Shown: piece by piece, positions 13,082-20,000 of the stretch
Layout: every line of letters begins with the position of its first letter
Numbering within the stretch: the stretch's first letter is position 1
Virus record (IMG/VR): IMGVR_UViG_3300028033_000029
DNA: 20,000 nt
Source of the DNA: an uncultured virus (IMG/VR IMGVR_UViG_3300028033_000029)
Lineage: Duplodnaviria; Heunggongvirae; Uroviricota; Caudoviricetes
Reading direction: 5' to 3' (one strand)
Notes under the pieces: generated by a model
The model's database searches: none
What the model saw: the letters and a program-made list of their open reading frames with translations, nothing else
What the model was told of the DNA's origin: nothing
Program-made: the position numbers and the translations under genes

Positions 13082-13669
13082 TTGAGTAGTACTAATAGAA
13101 GCCGAGCAAGAGATACTCATATTTCCGATTATTATGTTACCTCAATAGAAGAAATTGAAAAATTTTTAGAAAAATTTTTAAAGATAGAGAACATAGAGAT
13201 AAGTTACAGAGAGAATATGAAGGTGTTAGACCCAGCAGCAGGGGGAGATAAAATACATAAAATGAGCTATCCAGAAGCTTTAAAAAAGTTTGGGTTTGAA
13301 AACATAGACACTATAGATATTAGACAAGATTCGCTTGCACAATATAAACAGGATTACTTGATGACTAATTGTAAAAACAAATATGATATGATAATAACTA
13401 ATCCTCCTTTCAGTCTTGCTCTAAATTTTATACAAAAAGCATTAGATGATGTAAAAGATGATGGATGGGTAATAATGTTACTACGTTTGAACTTTTTCGG
13501 TGGTAAACAACGCTTTGGGTTCTGGCAACATAATATGCCTAAGTATTGTTTTGTACATCATAAACGTATGAGTTTCACAGATGATGGCAAGACAGATTCT
13601 ATTGAATATTGTCATATGGTGTGGCAAAAAGGATATAAATCTGAGTTCACGAAGTTGATGGTAATATAA
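13082..13669 (+). CDS. Small amino-DNA methyltransferase (probably N6-adenine)
   Basis: SAM-binding 'LDPAAGG' precedes catalytic 'IITNPPF'; also 'DYYVT' and 'MLLRLNF'. Confidence 0.85.
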   Translation: MSSTNRSRARDTHISDYYVTSIEEIEKFLEKFLKIENIEISYRENMKVLDPAAGGDKIHKMSYPEALKKFGFENIDTIDIRQDSLAQYKQDYLMTNCKNKYDMIITNPPFSLALNFIQKALDDVKDDGWVIMLLRLNFFGGKQRFGFWQHNMPKYCFVHHKRMSFTDDGKTDSIEYCHMVWQKGYKSEFTKLMVI

Positions 13670-13673
13670 TAAT

Positions 13674-13705
13674 GATTTAAATAAAATTGGTCTTTTATTA
13701 AAATC
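13674..13705. repeat. Intergenic palindrome AATAAAA-N6-TTTTATT, perfect core with extended arms
   Basis: GATTTAAATAAAA ttggtc TTTTATTAAAATC; 13-bp arms with one mismatch, core 13680-13699. Confidence 0.65.
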
Positions 13706-13736
13706 ATACATTATAATAATAAGGAGACGTGATTAT

Positions 13737-14450
13737 ATGTTAGAATTGAATAAGATTTACAATATGGATTGTTTAGAAGGTCTTGATTTATTAGATAATG
13801 AGTCAGTTGACCTCATAGTAACAAGTCCTCCTTATTACAATGCCAACAAAAAATACCAGCGTGGTAGTGGAATTCATTACACAATGGATATTGGTGAACC
13901 GCTTTATGTTGTTGAAGATATATTTCAAAAAAGTTATCGAATTTTAAAAAATGATGGTTTTTTGTGTATTAATTTAGGATTTTCATATGGTGAAACAGGT
14001 GTATTAAGACCATTTTATATTTTACAGCGAGCCATAAAATTAAAGTGGTTTGTTATTGATACAATTATTTGGGTTAAAACAAATCCAATTCCTATTAAAA
14101 ATAGATTAACTAATGCATTTGAGTATATTTTTGTTTTAGCCAAACATCCACATACTGAGTATCCTTCTAAACCTACTTATGTAAAAAATGTTATCGAGAC
14201 TTCTATATCTAAACCAAAAGATGCTTATTTTCACAATGCAGTTTTTCCTTTAGAAATCCCTAAATTTTGTATTGAAATTTTTACTAAAAAAGGTGATATT
14301 GTTTTAGATCCTTTTATGGGTAGTGGAACAACAGCAATAGCAGCTTTAGAGTTAGGGAGAAAATTTATAGGATTCGAGATTAATCCTGAGTATGTTGAAT
14401 TAGCTAATCAAAGAATTGAAAATTATTTGAACGCACAGGAGAGAGGATAG
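13737..14450 (+). CDS. Beta-class DNA methyltransferase (N6_N4_Mtase; SPPY suggests N4-cytosine)
   Basis: 'DLIVTSPPY', 'HNAVFP', 'VLDPFMGSGTT', 'GFEINPEY'. Confidence 0.92.
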   Translation: MLELNKIYNMDCLEGLDLLDNESVDLIVTSPPYYNANKKYQRGSGIHYTMDIGEPLYVVEDIFQKSYRILKNDGFLCINLGFSYGETGVLRPFYILQRAIKLKWFVIDTIIWVKTNPIPIKNRLTNAFEYIFVLAKHPHTEYPSKPTYVKNVIETSISKPKDAYFHNAVFPLEIPKFCIEIFTKKGDIVLDPFMGSGTTAIAALELGRKFIGFEINPEYVELANQRIENYLNAQERG

Positions 14451-14451
14451 A

Positions 14452-14985
14452 ATGATAATTGAGAGAAAGTGGGCAATGCCCAATAAAAATACTTTTTTGA
14501 TTAGGCCAATTATGGAATTGTTAAAAGAAGAAGTATAAAATGGGATTTGGATTGATCCATTCGCTAATGATAATACAATAAAAAAGATTATACAGAATTC
14601 CAGTGTAACTCTCATTACTAATGATTTAAATCCCGAATATAATACAGATTACCACTTAGATGCTCTTGATTTTTTGAGACAATTTACTGACAATTCTATT
14701 GATGGAGTGTTATATGACCCACCGTATTCAGTTAGACAAGTAGCTGAATCTTATAAACATTTTGGGTATGAAGTAACTTCTGAAATTACAAGAAGTGATT
14801 GGTGGACTAAACACAAAAAAGAAATAGCGAGGATTACTAAAATAGGAGGAAAGGTTATTAGTTTCGGGTGGAATAGTATGGGTATAGGCAAGAACAATGG
14901 TTTTGAAATACAAAGAATATTATTAGTACCGCATGGTGGTATACATAATGATACTATTGTAGTGGTGGAAAAGAAAATTCAATAA
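14452..14985 (+). pseudogene. Small phage adenine-methyltransferase-like gene interrupted by an in-frame TAA at codon 29
   Basis: ATG 14452 (SD GAGAGGA) gives MIIERKWAMPNKNTFLIRPIMELLKEEV* and continues in the same frame NGIWIDPFAN...TNDLNP...DALDFL...LYDPPYS. TAA is at 14536-14538. Confidence 0.8.
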
Positions 14986-15000
14986 AATCTAACTTTTATT
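14981..15000. repeat. Intergenic palindrome AATAAAA-N6-TTTTATT, perfect copy
   Basis: AATAAAA tctaac TTTTATT; the left arm contains the upstream stop codon. Confidence 0.65.
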
Positions 15001-15037
15001 TAAAACAACAGATAAAAATAATAACGAGGTGATTATA

Positions 15038-15844
15038 TTGTCTAATTTCAAGTCTTGGTTTCCTAATATATATTTTGAAACAGAAAAGGGTGTAATAATA
15101 AATGATGATTGCTTTAACGTATTTAAATACATACCAGATAAAAGTATAGATACGATTTTGGCTGATTTGCCTTATGGAATAACTGAATGTAAATGGGATA
15201 GTGTGTTACCTTTAGATAAGCTTTGGGAAGAGTATAGAAGAATCATTAAAGATAATGGAGCAATATTATTGTTTGGAACAGAACCTTTTAGTACTTTTTT
15301 GAGGATACAAGCAATTGATTTGTATAAATACGATTGGATATGGCAAAAAACAGTTCCTACTGGATTTCAACACGCCAAAAATATGCCATTAAGAGACTAT
15401 GAAATTATTAGTGTTTTTTCAAAAGCACCTATAGGGCATAAATCTTTACTTGGAGACAAGAGGATGAAATATAATCCACAAGGTTTACAAGATTGTTTTG
15501 AGATTGAAAACAGCAAAACAAAATTTAAAAATATAATCAGCGAACGCCCCTCACATAAGGATATTATTATAAGACAAAAATGTAATTATCCTAAAATGAT
15601 TATAAAGTTTCCTAATCAAAGTGGCGAGTGTGCAAACAACAAACGACTACATCCTACCCAAAAACCAGTAGCATTATTAGAATATTTGATTAAAACATAT
15701 ACTAATGAAGGTGATTTGGTTTTAGACAATACTGCAGGAGTATGTTCAACAGGAGTAGCAGCTGAAAATACTAACAGATATTGGATTTGCATTGAGAAAG
15801 AATTAGAATATTGCCAAAAAGCAGTAACGAGATTTAGTAAATAA
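15038..15844 (+). CDS. Beta-class DNA methyltransferase (DLPY type, probably N6-adenine)
   Basis: 'DTILADLPYG', 'YDWIWQK', 'HPTQKPVALLEYLIKTYT', and a variant SAM motif 'VLDNTAGVCST'. Probable TTG start at 15038 behind GAGGTG. Confidence 0.88.
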   Translation: MSNFKSWFPNIYFETEKGVIINDDCFNVFKYIPDKSIDTILADLPYGITECKWDSVLPLDKLWEEYRRIIKDNGAILLFGTEPFSTFLRIQAIDLYKYDWIWQKTVPTGFQHAKNMPLRDYEIISVFSKAPIGHKSLLGDKRMKYNPQGLQDCFEIENSKTKFKNIISERPSHKDIIIRQKCNYPKMIIKFPNQSGECANNKRLHPTQKPVALLEYLIKTYTNEGDLVLDNTAGVCSTGVAAENTNRYWICIEKELEYCQKAVTRFSK

Positions 15845-17838: not shown

Positions 17839-18237
17839 ATGAAGCCCTTTACAAAAAGATATAAAAATGATAGCATTGAAAAATATCCAATTATTAGTAA
17901 AAAGACAGGTAAAAAATATTTTGTAACGATACAACCATATTATTTAGACGAAAAATATTACAAGGAAGGTTGTATAGTGCGACTGTATGATGGTAAATTT
18001 AGATTGGGGATATTCCCTAATAAGCAATTAATAGAAATCCATTGCAAAAACGAAAATGGTATAATAAAAGAAGAATATCCTGACAAGGATATGCATAGTA
18101 ATTTCCCTTATAATTTGATTGGGTTGGCAAAATATGCAGTTGCTAGTTATGAGATAAACTGCGAAAAAGAGAAAAAGGTTATAGAAACATTTGAAAAAGA
18201 TTTTGAGGAGTTTGAAAAATGGGATGGAGTAGTGTGA
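17839..18237 (+). CDS. Hypothetical phage protein (132 aa)
   Basis: SD AAGGAGGT plus ATG. Confidence 0.7.
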   Translation: MKPFTKRYKNDSIEKYPIISKKTGKKYFVTIQPYYLDEKYYKEGCIVRLYDGKFRLGIFPNKQLIEIHCKNENGIIKEEYPDKDMHSNFPYNLIGLAKYAVASYEINCEKEKKVIETFEKDFEEFEKWDGVV

Positions 18238-18283
18238 TTTGATTATTAACATATAAAAACAATAAAAATTTCATAAAAAACTC

Positions 18284-18311
18284 TTGACAAAGAAAAAATA
18301 CGTGGTATAAT
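18284..18311 (+). promoter_or_regulatory. Consensus sigma-A promoter with extended -10, upstream of cas12f
   Basis: TTGACA (18284-18289), 16 nt, TATAAT (18306-18311) with TGn and an A-rich UP element. Confidence 0.85.
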
Positions 18312-18403
18312 ATAAAATGTGAGGTGAACGAGATGGATACAAGTTAATAAAATTTATTTTTCAGTGCACGTTATAATAATAATGATAATGAGGAGACGAT
18401 AAA

Positions 18404-19777
18404 ATGGCGAAGCGAAAAAGAGATAAAAATGCTGTAGTTAAAACATTAAAACTTGAATTAGTAGATGTTTTAAATTATGAACCACCGCCTAAAAAAGATG
18501 GTGAAGAGTATACTGAAAAAGAAAAGAAACGGATGTTTAGAAAAGAACTTAGAAACTTACAAAAAAGGATAGCCCAAACTAGTAATTATATTATGCGTGA
18601 ATATTTTTTGTGGGAACTTAAAAGAATTGAGGCATCTAAAAATGGGATTATACTCAATGAAAAAGAAGAATTAGGCACCACACTACAAAACAAAGGATAT
18701 AGAATTGCAACTGAAACTTTAAAAGGGTTAAACACAAGGAATATATCGGCTTTAACATCTTGGTTGTGGGAAAATTGGCGAAAGTATAAAAAGAAAGTAT
18801 TTAATGGAAGCATGAGTTTACCTTCTTATGGCTTAAAGCAACCCATACATATCATAAAAGAGAATTATAAAATAATGCCATATAAAAATAATAATGAGTA
18901 TATAGTAGAAATAACATTTCTAAGTCCTTCTGAAGGAAGAAATCGTACTTTAAAATTTGTTACTGTAAGGCAGGACAAGTATCGCCAAAATATCATTAAT
19001 AAGATATTAAGTGGTGAGTATAGGCAAGGGTCAGCACAACTTATTTTAGAAAATAATCCTAATAAAAATTTAAGCGCACAAAAAATATTTTTCCATTTCA
19101 ATTATGAGTTTGTACCTCAAGTAAAAGAAGAGTTATCTGATAAAATTTTGGGACTTGATTTAGGACTTAAAAATGTGGTTGTTATGCAAGTGTACGACCC
19201 ACAACAAGGGAAATTTGAAGATTTAGATGAAAATGAGTGTATGATAGATGGTACAGAATTAGTTATTTACAAAAACAAAATAGAAGCTTTAAGAAAAAAA
19301 GCTAATAAAGCCACTAAATGGAAAGGTCAGGGCAACACAGGACATGGTAGAAAAAAAAGAACTAAAAATGCCTTAAATATAGGACACAAAATTAAAAATT
19401 CTAAGAGCACTTATAATTATAAACTAGCTAAATATATAATTGATTTTGCATTAAAGTATCAATGTAAATATATTAAAATGGAAAAATTAACAAGACATGG
19501 GTTTAGTGATACATTACTTCAAAATTGGACATTTAATGATTTGCAAAACAAGATAAAAAATAAAGCTAAAGAAAATGGAATTGAGGTTTTATTTGTTGAA
19601 CCGCAGTATACTTCTCAACAATGCAGCAAATGTGGATATATAGATAAGGAAAACAGGGAAACAAGGGATAATTTTAAATGTAAGAAGTGCGGTTTTGAAA
19701 TAGATGCTGATATAAATGCAGCACGAAATATAGCACTTTCGGAAAAAATTATTAAAGAAGATGATGATGATGAATAA
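18404..19777 (+). CDS. cas12f: Type V-F CRISPR effector, Cas12f1-like (TnpB superfamily), 457 aa, RuvC intact
   Basis: RuvC-I 'LGLDLG', RuvC-II 'IKMEKL', RuvC-III 'DADINAARNIA'; Zn finger 'YTSQQCSKCG...CKKCG'. Blocks 'GSMSLPSY', 'ILSGEY', 'GHGRKKR' and 'LQNWTFNDLQNKI' match AsCas12f1 as recalled. No tnpA nearby; tracr-like element, leader and repeat follow. Confidence 0.85.
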   Translation: MAKRKRDKNAVVKTLKLELVDVLNYEPPPKKDGEEYTEKEKKRMFRKELRNLQKRIAQTSNYIMREYFLWELKRIEASKNGIILNEKEELGTTLQNKGYRIATETLKGLNTRNISALTSWLWENWRKYKKKVFNGSMSLPSYGLKQPIHIIKENYKIMPYKNNNEYIVEITFLSPSEGRNRTLKFVTVRQDKYRQNIINKILSGEYRQGSAQLILENNPNKNLSAQKIFFHFNYEFVPQVKEELSDKILGLDLGLKNVVVMQVYDPQQGKFEDLDENECMIDGTELVIYKNKIEALRKKANKATKWKGQGNTGHGRKKRTKNALNIGHKIKNSKSTYNYKLAKYIIDFALKYQCKYIKMEKLTRHGFSDTLLQNWTFNDLQNKIKNKAKENGIEVLFVEPQYTSQQCSKCGYIDKENRETRDNFKCKKCGFEIDADINAARNIALSEKIIKEDDDDE

Positions 19778-19800
19778 ATAGTACCTTGAAAATAAAATAC

Positions 19801-19863
19801 GGGGTGTTTCCACACCCCAAGCCGAGTTCGCCATTCTCGGCAATCCCCTATATTAAATAAAAC
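19801..19863 (+). ncRNA. Putative tracrRNA, very compact
   Basis: Hairpin 1 GGGGTGT/ACACCCC contains TTCCAC (19808-19813), complementary to repeat GTGGAA. Hairpin 2 is GCCGAG-TTCGCCATT-CTCGGC. Anti-repeat TCCCCTATAT (19844-19853) is complementary to repeat ATATAGGGGA, and terminal AAAC to repeat GTTT. Confidence 0.75.
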
Positions 19864-19870
19864 AAAATGG

Positions 19871-19969
19871 CTGTCGTCGATCCCCTATAGTTTTTGCATT
19901 ATTAAACATCGACGACAAAATAAAGAAAACAAAACCTATACATATTGGGAAATAAGGGTTTTAAAACGG
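19871..19969 (+). promoter_or_regulatory. CRISPR leader
   Basis: Perfect inverted repeat TGTCGTCGAT (19872-19881) / ATCGACGACA (19908-19917), then an AT-rich tract with AAAACC...GGTTTT, ending ...ACGG at the repeat. Resembles clostridial CRISPR leaders as recalled. Confidence 0.65.
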
Positions 19970-19999
19970 GTTTAGCTCTAACATATAGGGGAGTGGAAC
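19970..19999 (+). CRISPR. First CRISPR repeat (30 nt, GTTTAGCTCTAACATATAGGGGAGTGGAAC); array presumably continues beyond the window
   Basis: GTTT...GAAC termini, 30-nt length, position after a leader and complementarity to the upstream anti-repeat. Only one copy is visible. Confidence 0.7.
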
Positions 20000-20000
20000 G

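Follow-up and report, generated by a model that had tools for sequence, protein, structure and literature searches.

A candidate naturally reduced AsCas12f1-type tracrRNA in a phage-borne CRISPR-Cas12f locus

Background

We analysed a stretch of 20,000 nucleotides from an uncultured Caudoviricetes virus (IMG/VR record IMGVR_UViG_3300028033_000029; hereafter, the window), at the end of which a cas12f gene is followed by a short intergenic region and the first repeat of a putative CRISPR array. In our judgement, the core at 19801-19853 is probably the trans-activating CRISPR RNA (tracrRNA) of a phage type V-F1 Cas12f system, encoded on the + strand and similar to that of AsCas12f1 (As). It would be a naturally reduced AsCas12f1-type tracrRNA; the type of the system is unchanged, and the split anti-repeat of the RNA is textbook for Cas12f. 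Cas12f nucleases are valued for their small size, and their single guide RNAs (sgRNAs), at about 190-210 nt, have been the object of much engineering to trim them. A first-pass annotation, made from the letters of the window alone, had proposed a naturally minimised tracrRNA of this kind.

Results

Two anti-repeat segments in a short core

Two segments of the core match adjacent parts of the repeat (19983-19998), with a 6-bp hairpin between them. The longer, TCCCCTATAT at 19844-19853, exactly complements ATATAGGGGA at 19983-19992, which in RNA gives the repeat:anti-repeat (R:AR) pair R:AR-1, UCCCCUAUAU / AUAUAGGGGA. The shorter, TTCCAC at 19808-19813, exactly complements GTGGAA at 19993-19998, and 19819-19841 reads AAGCCGAG-TTCGCCATT-CTCGGC. 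The letters and positions that the first-pass annotation gave for the anti-repeats, stem 2 and the repeat are all correct. Its placement of TTCCAC at the apex of hairpin 1 holds for TTCCA, which lies in the loop, and not for the final C, which lies in the 6-bp stem 1. That stem (19801-19806 with 19813-19818) leaves the loop TTTCCA, of which 5 nt (TTCCA/TGGAA) can pair with the stem kept closed; because only TTCCA is freed, we take the pseudoknot to be 5 bp. The minimum-energy fold closes a seventh pair in stem 1.

A perfect complement of at least 10 nt arose in 14 of 5000 dinucleotide-preserving shuffles (192-nt intergenic stretch against the 30-nt repeat). The predicted fold of 19798-19872 on the + strand contains both hairpins, the anti-repeat staying unpaired, with a z score of -4.0 and none of 200 shuffles as stable; an A/U-rich pairing of 19854-19863 with the 5' end of the repeat (GTTTA) is also possible. 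When 19300-20000 was scanned against Rfam with E allowed up to 10, three chance snoRNA matches were all that came back, far below threshold. An antisense 11-nt match to the repeat at 13734-13744 was taken as chance.

In the arrangement we propose, the stem-1 loop UUCCA would pair with UGGAA, the last repeat bases of the CRISPR RNA (crRNA), to form the R:AR-2 pseudoknot; stem 2 would consist of a 6-bp base, and two bases further on an anti-repeat of 8-10 bp would pair with the repeat just 5' of the pseudoknot. Type V-F1 loci have a tracrRNA between cas12f and the array, with a stem-1 loop pairing with the 3' end of the repeat, and a long repeat:anti-repeat duplex adjoining the pseudoknot; we find both here, the duplex being 10 bp in the window and 9 and 8 bp in the related phage variants G001 and L166. 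The names R:AR-1 and R:AR-2 are those given to the split segments in AsCas12f1 (10.1101/2023.07.03.547593). Cas12b, f1, g and l are reported to combine a long duplex with a short R:AR pseudoknot of 5-7 bp (PMC11246509), and a pseudoknot with the 3' end of the repeat is called characteristic of Cas12 tracrRNAs (10.1101/2025.01.20.633832). The split anti-repeat that the first-pass annotation singled out is therefore present, both segments being exact complements, and at the same time nothing special, as it is the norm published for Cas12f (PMC11246509).

The features of the locus are as follows.

18284..18311, + strand: consensus sigma-70-type promoter before cas12f (TTGACA, 16 nt, TATAAT, with TG; hexamers match 12/12)
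18404..19777, + strand: cas12f, 457 aa, putative type V-F1 effector, AsCas12f1-like; last gene of the window
19698..19787, + strand: invariant block of 90 nt (last 26 codons, stop and 10 nt), identical in all three phage variants
19801..19818, + strand: tracrRNA stem 1, GGGGTG / CACCCC with loop TTTCCA; homologue of AsCas12f1 stem 1
19808..19812, + strand: short anti-repeat (R:AR-2, pseudoknot), UUCCA pairing with UGGAA at 19994-19998, the 3' end of the repeat
19821..19841, + strand: stem 2, 6-bp base only, GCCGAG / CTCGGC with 9-nt loop TTCGCCATT; invariant in all 4 copies
19844..19853, + strand: long anti-repeat (R:AR-1), 10 bp with repeat 19983-19992
19866..19871, + strand: PK2 strand AATGGC, proposed to pair with GCCATT at 19830-19835 in the stem-2 loop
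19873..19916, no strand assigned: palindromic CRISPR-leader element, 44 bp, arms GTCGTCGAT / ATCGACGAC with 26 nt between
19917..19969, + strand: remainder of the leader, from palindrome to first repeat; variable among phage variants
19970..19999, + strand: first CRISPR repeat, GTTTAGCTCTAACATATAGGGGAGTGGAAC; the window stops one base later

The neighbouring protein is a Cas12f

The product of 18404-19777 is identified by its sequence as a phage-borne Cas12f of type V-F1 (formerly V-U3), AsCas12f1-like. It carries a Cas12f1-like TNB domain (Pfam PF07282, E 2e-24); its closest PDB entries by phmmer are those of AsCas12f1 (8J12, the best, at E 1e-61, with 7WJU and 8DZJ at a similar E); and BLASTP against the open reading frame (ORF) of the As locus gives 36% identity across residues 93-452. 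The AlphaFold model has a predicted local distance difference test score (pLDDT) of 81, and its top Foldseek matches are again AsCas12f (8DZJ, 8J3R, 8J12; E about 1e-31). The protein has all the properties of a V-F1 effector: it is TnpB-like, falls within 400-550 aa and carries both a zinc-ribbon (TNB) domain and a putative D-E-D RuvC triad, whose residues D252, E360 and D436 are unchanged among 11 relatives. Characterised Cas12f1 effectors work as homodimers with a single guide RNA. The ratio of nonsynonymous to synonymous substitution rates (dN/dS) among the three phage variants is 0.14-0.18, which indicates purifying selection on cas12f.

The N-termini of the phage Cas12f and AsCas12f1 fail to align by BLASTP. 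D16 and W17 of AsCas12f1 are reported to stack on bases flipped from stem 3 (10.1101/2023.07.03.547593); in their stead the phage Cas12f carries a longer charged insert, modelled as a loop running from the strand at 11-22 to the helix at 38-79. Such an insert would fit a trade of RNA for protein and proves nothing.

Homology with the AsCas12f1 tracrRNA

Our reference for AsCas12f1 is locus L179, whose 422-aa ORF matches AsCas12f1 PDB chains across all 422 residues (957-960 bits). Both loci run in the same order: cas12f stop, 23 nt, stem 1, AAGCCGAG...CTCGG, anti-repeat, palindrome, array. Stem 1 of L179, TCGTCG-GTTCAG-CGACGA, also has 6 bp and a 6-nt loop, which complements the repeat end TGAAC (R:AR-2); it is followed by TAAGCCGAGAAGTGCCAA...CGCTCGGTAAGG, two further hairpins and a long anti-repeat that, as in the phage, pairs with the repeat directly 5' of the pseudoknot, and a 44-bp palindrome again precedes the array. 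Because the 23-nt spacing, the pairing of stem-1 loop with repeat and the stem-2 base AAGCCGAG...CUCGG are the same, we regard the window RNA, on sequence grounds, as homologous to the AsCas12f1 tracrRNA. What the first-pass annotation said of the AsCas12f1 tracrRNA (a 5' hairpin whose loop pairs with the repeat, the shared motifs and roughly twice the length) agrees with L179 and with the published description.

In that description, the AsCas12f1 guide has stems 1-4, R:AR-1 and R:AR-2, with R:AR-2 stacked on stem 1, base triples in stem 2, a coaxial helix of stems 3 and 4 with R:AR-1, the truncation of which is reported to abolish cleavage, and, in the structure as reported, zero RNA 5' of the core (10.1101/2023.07.03.547593). 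The native tracrRNA measures 169 nt, and characterised Cas12f1 tracrRNAs, at 153-169 nt, are termed 'remarkably long' (PMC8548392).

Several As-like loci (L009, L019, L021, L091, L012) share a further pairing, GTGCGAA(C) / (G)TTCGCAC, with its 5' strand in the last cas12f codons. Its topology varies, from a hairpin before stem 1 in some to a pairing that spans stems 1 and 2 in L009, and it is absent from the phage clade.

Substitutions in related phages preserve the pairings

Pattern scans of viral_contigs returned the related phage variants G001 (an IMG/VR record, 85% nucleotide identity) and L166/L169, plus chance matches inside GC-rich genes (L168, L170, L171, L207). A scan of viral_contigs for the P0004 locus returned none, scans of metagenomes and genomes gave only relatives at most 37% identical over full length, and the INPHARED phage collection held no DNA match to 18000-20000. 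Both G001 and L166 have the layout of the window, followed by a mini-array and then a thyX-like gene.

Among the three phage variants (the window, G001 and L166), five substitutions fall within the proposed tracrRNA helices, of which four are compensated, one gives a G-U pair and none is disruptive. In G001, 19802 G>A accompanies 19817 C>T in stem 1 (G-C to A-U), and 19848 C>T and 19849 T>C in R:AR-1 accompany 19988 G>A and 19987 A>G in the repeat. The G-U pair is in stem 1 of L166, at 19815, and a second, tracr-like copy in G001 likewise has a stem-1 G-U; because both would be A-C on the minus strand, the tracrRNA is placed on the + strand. The G-U pairs, synteny and motifs thus agree with the strand and the AsCas12f1 type first proposed. 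In a 4-row alignment of the three variants and the second G001 copy, whose row is non-homologous in the repeat columns, 93% of cells are paired, versus 31-48% with the partners slid by 1-3 columns; five pairs are altered on both sides, and 3 of 500 shuffles do as well. When contigs of four sequencing runs were compared with the window, X6 and X7 yielded G001-type sequence only, X8 two short pieces with unrelated flanks and X9 nothing; the G001-type changes recur in X6 and X7, which hold the same variant and so lend no independent support.

The short anti-repeat was examined across the family, in 20 distinct loci whose repeat is delimited and whose core has both stem 1 and stem 2 (one row is a wrong-strand false positive, and L034 is a near-duplicate of L017). 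In 19 of the 20, at least 4 nt of the stem-1 loop are complementary to the final 9 nt of the repeat; the mean complement is 4.45, versus 2.90 (sd 0.19) with permuted repeat ends, and 0 of 5000 permutations reach as high. The long anti-repeat covaries with the G001 repeat, and its short counterpart does so across the family; both appear to be of the functional kind, and covariation across homologous loci, which had been suggested as a check on the annotation, speaks in its favour.

These observations bear on a reading in which the region holds no functional RNA and consists of hairpins in a 3' untranslated region, acting as terminators or antisense terminators, together with a decayed inverted repeat copy, in a degenerating CRISPR locus. 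We consider it very improbable. It would account for the terminator-like score of stem 1 on the minus strand, where TATTTTATTT follows, for the tiny arrays of 3-4 repeats with degenerate remnants, for spacers whose targets were not found (in the window, G001 and L166, and with single spacers against IMG/VR and INPHARED) and for the absence of As-type stems said to be indispensable. Yet changes in stem 1 and in the anti-repeat and repeat are compensated, G-U pairs fit the + strand only, and spacing and motifs equal those of the characterised As tracrRNA. The selection on cas12f and its conserved putative RuvC residues also tell against decay, and independent ORFs of at least 100 aa (outside larger + ORFs) lie on the + strand without exception in the window, so that terminators on the minus strand would lack a gene to act on.

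A second tracr-like copy in G001

The second copy in G001 lies on the minus strand of L002 at ~1480-1590 (G001 ~92.57-92.68 kb), remote from cas12f, between ORFs of 395 aa and 251 aa. It has a different stem-1 loop (ATCTCTGC) and, 47 nt downstream, a handle in cis, GAGGGA-A-CAGAG, which is complementary to its own loop and has the layout of the repeat end GAGGGA-A-TGGAA. Its 'guide' would consist of the following gene's ribosome site and start, and no other target for it was found in G001 or the window. The copy looks like an omega-RNA or a natural single guide.

Which parts of the scaffold are gone

The phage clade has a stem-2 unit (AAxxCGAG to CTCGxxAA) of 25 nt; that of As measures 51 nt, and in 16 other true rows its length is 28-94 nt. 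In the window, stem 2 is GAG-UUCGCCAUU-CUC, with neither the nested distal helix nor the GAGAAG/CGCUC triple motif (as defined in 10.1101/2023.07.03.547593), which is present in L179 and As-like relatives. Stems 3 and 4 are both predicted in L179 and are missing from the phage RNA, no hairpin being predicted in 19842-19872 of the window or its equivalents in G001 and L166. R:AR-1 is 8-10 bp in the phage clade, whereas about 25 nt pair in As-like relatives, and most of the repeat in As itself. From stem 1 to the end of the anti-repeat L179 spans about 140 nt, against 53-71 nt for the phage core. The annotated absence of long peripheral stems is thus borne out for distal stem 2 and As stems 3 and 4. 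The proteins differ too, being 36% identical, with the longer insert of the phage at the As residues D16/W17 that contact stem 3.

We built a maximum-likelihood tree of 33 proteins (27 selected loci plus P0001, P0002 and P0004-P0007, the last four being deeper relatives at 46-71% identity; P0003 was omitted as near-identical to the G001 and L166 proteins). The phage clade is monophyletic (100/100) and its sister is L012/L008 (99/97). Because the sister clade, in L012, has a long As-type tracrRNA, the short form is derived; with the long form retained there and stem 2 the shortest among the 19 loci compared, 'naturally minimised' is a fair description.

The compact layout is not unique to the window phage, because another lineage has it as well. 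In the metagenome contig L015, stem 1 and a stem 2 of 28 nt are followed at once by 'AA' and an anti-repeat of 10 nt, and the array begins 80 nt past stem 1. L015 differs in belonging to another protein clade (with L037, 100/100), in having tracrRNA and array upstream of the gene, and in lacking both the PK2 strand and the 44-bp palindrome. In L037 and L042/L043 the same short core is fused in cis to a handle, as in an omega-RNA. These compact cis-guides and the TnpB omega-RNA (reRNA) share with the phage RNA the pseudoknot between stem-1 loop and guide-adjacent sequence and a short stem 2 (23-27 nt). They differ in that the window locus is split into a tracrRNA and an array with spacers, the latter seen in relatives; the layout of an omega-RNA, which sits at a transposon right end with its guide in cis and no array, is not that of the window, and a cis handle accompanies only the second G001 copy.

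Similar reductions have been made by engineering. The AsCas12f sgRNA 'S3-5v7' (titles of PDB 8J3R/8J1J) has lost its peripheral stems and retains, besides the hairpin that forms the pseudoknot, a short repeat:anti-repeat duplex and the base of the stem that follows the hairpin, and a 70-nt 5' truncation of a Cas12f tracrRNA (PMC13137049) is reported to remove peripheral stems as well. Those are laboratory designs, whereas the candidate phage RNA is natural and kept in at least three phage variants. A full-text literature search found no paper on a short Cas12f tracrRNA, though a natural short form might be described in work beyond the search; pipelines are described as taking Cas12f tracrRNAs to be 100-200 nt (10.64898/2026.03.27.714800).

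Ends of the RNA and its transcription

The length of ~63 nt first given (19801-19863) was a guess: covarying pairing reaches 19871, and the 90 nt before 19788 are invariant. The pairing in question, PK2, joins GCCATT at 19830-19835 to AATGGC at 19866-19871; in this helix 100% of cells are paired and two pairs are changed on both sides, the source of the covariation being the second G001 copy, which has CCACCACT and AGTGGTGG at the corresponding places. We infer from it that the tracrRNA runs to about 19871. Because its 5' strand resembles a strand of the As distal stem-2 helix (UGCCAA), PK2 may replace that helix by a pseudoknot whose second strand lies 3' of the anti-repeat. The RNA would then continue to ~19871, with AAUGGC pairing back to the stem-2 loop and maybe rebuilding the distal helix, and end before the palindrome.

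At the 5' side, similarity to the second G001 copy begins about 6 nt before stem 1 (about 19795). No conserved promoter was found directly before 19801 in the window and its relatives; -10-like hexamers immediately upstream of stem 1 were rejected, as they are not conserved in L166. We propose that the promoter at 18284-18311 drives a cas12f-tracrRNA-array transcript, of which the tracrRNA would be a processed 3' part of the cas12f message, with a mature length of roughly 55-95 nt, versus 140-169 nt in AsCas12f1.

Within 19698-19787 the three variants have 0 differences, versus about 20% in flanking coding DNA (10 per 50 nt just upstream, window against L166). Possible readings of this block are a 5' extension, a processing signal and a recombination joint. 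The three variants are mosaics: G001 equals L166 to ~19449 and equals the window exactly over 19450-19801. Given this mosaic structure, the guide module is shuffled by recombination along with the 3' end of cas12f.

The block also speaks for a competing account, in which the core is the same and the mature tracrRNA is not small, starting inside cas12f and/or running through the 44-nt hairpin for 120-220 nt in all; 'minimised' would then fit the internal stems only. It draws further on the lack of a conserved promoter just before 19801 and of any + strand terminator-like site before the array (none in 19400-20000), on the published As tracrRNA, which at 169 nt (PMC8548392) is ~29 nt longer than the L179 span from stem 1 to anti-repeat, and on guide RNAs described as overlapping ORFs in TnpB and Cas12n (10.64898/2026.03.27.714800). 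Against this, the As structure is reported without RNA 5' of stem 1 (10.1101/2023.07.03.547593), the G001 duplicate starts only ~6 nt before stem 1, and the hairpin, whose orientation is opposite to that in As, is found in type-I-like array leaders too, and so is no part of the scaffold; the invariant block, moreover, could be a recombination joint of mosaic phages. We hold a long RNA to be unlikely, though far from negligible, and prefer the short one.

A palindrome shared with other array leaders

The element at 19873-19916 has identical 9-bp arms and a CCCC...TTTTT loop signature. The As locus carries it between tracrRNA and array (L179 1288-1331) with the loop inverted: 34 of 44 positions are identical antisense, and the loop matches at 17/26, versus 8/26 sense. 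Copies with the same arms and signature lie 87-142 nt away on the array leader side in 8 of 9 cases (64 genomes, one order), beside arrays with V-F and, mostly, type-I-like repeats (loci including L185, L186, L188 and L194-L197); the phage clade has it in inverted orientation, and there just 54-55 nt separate it from the array. The 44-nt hairpin was ruled out as a 3' domain or terminator of the tracrRNA, being inverted relative to As and recurrent in the leaders of other arrays. It is best read, from its distribution, as a CRISPR-leader element and not as tracrRNA scaffold, possibly a leader or host-factor site. We know of no description of it, and its being common to V-F and type-I-like array leaders is a separate lead on CRISPR leader function. 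An 813-nt contig of run X8 matches the window only at 19872-19924, over the palindrome, with 7 differences and unrelated flanks, which fits occurrence in other contexts.

The loop of the palindrome holds a second 9-nt complement of the repeat, TCCCCTATA at 19881-19889, which the first-pass annotation did not mention. Were this copy, from 19881-19889 onward, the functional long anti-repeat, the first would be a relic. Its complement is exact over 9 nt; its RNAduplex energy is the best in the window at -21.2 kcal/mol (-19.7 for the first anti-repeat), pairing almost the whole repeat; and in L166 pairing is still possible, read by eye, with two G-U pairs. But G001 reads TCCCTAAAGG here, which leaves 5 bp after the change in its repeat, while the first copy changed in step; TCCCC belongs to the consensus of the leader palindrome in unrelated loci, and the orientation is inverted in the As locus. 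Because it did not keep pace with the change in the G001 repeat, we treat 19881-19889 as incidental and reject it as the functional copy, giving this alternative very little credence.

The array and the phage

The arrays of the relatives have a period of 66-67 nt; G001 has 4 repeats, whereas L166 has 3, together with degenerate remnants. After the third repeat of L166 (minus strand) come two consecutive truncated, degenerate 3' halves of a repeat, GCTCTAACATATAGGGGGGTGGAAC and then GGGGAATGGAAG; the former matches the repeat type of the window, not that of L166 itself. The spacers of G001 and L166 have no match in the window, G001 or L166; one L166 spacer gave only a self-match in IMG/VR, and one G001 spacer no match in INPHARED.

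By PHROGs annotation the 20-kb window is a phage replication module, with a Sak4-like annealing protein, DnaB helicase, primase, exonuclease, DNA polymerase and DNA methyltransferases. Upstream of the Cas12f module lie three consecutive methyltransferase-like ORFs (13082-15844; PHROGs 799, 67), which probably encode anti-restriction methylases of the phage.

Discussion

Several points weigh against the short tracrRNA that we favour. It is known from sequence alone, and its ends are deduced from conservation. The window carries one repeat, its array being deduced from relatives. The covariation rests on three close variants and one paralogue, with a structure derived from the same sequences and a slide control that is favourably biased, and the 5-bp pseudoknot shows no variation inside the phage clade. 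The stronger duplex of the palindrome loop, the terminator-like minus strand of stem 1 and the invariant 19698-19787, which may mean that the functional RNA starts inside the gene, belong here as well. Stems 3 and 4 of AsCas12f1 are reportedly indispensable (10.1101/2023.07.03.547593), and a guide that lacks both could be inactive, or could depend on further parts.

If the short tracrRNA is active, together with the crRNAs of the mini-array it would guide Cas12f to the DNA of phage competitors. A bolder proposal, doubtful but possible in our view, is that in this phage clade a 457-aa Cas12f works with the smallest natural V-F scaffold seen so far (~55-75 nt), with stems 3 and 4 gone, a pseudoknot in place of distal stem 2 and the N-terminal insert taking over the lost contacts, and that the second G001 copy, with its own handle in cis before a phage gene, may serve this Cas12f in homing or regulation as a natural single guide, re-fused in the manner of an omega-RNA.

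A natural and conserved AsCas12f1-like system appears to use roughly half the scaffold and to do without stems reported as indispensable. If confirmed, it would offer a template for short guides and a test case for the trade of structural roles between protein and RNA. It would also be a data point on how tracrRNAs, once split from omega-RNA, become shorter or keep their small size.

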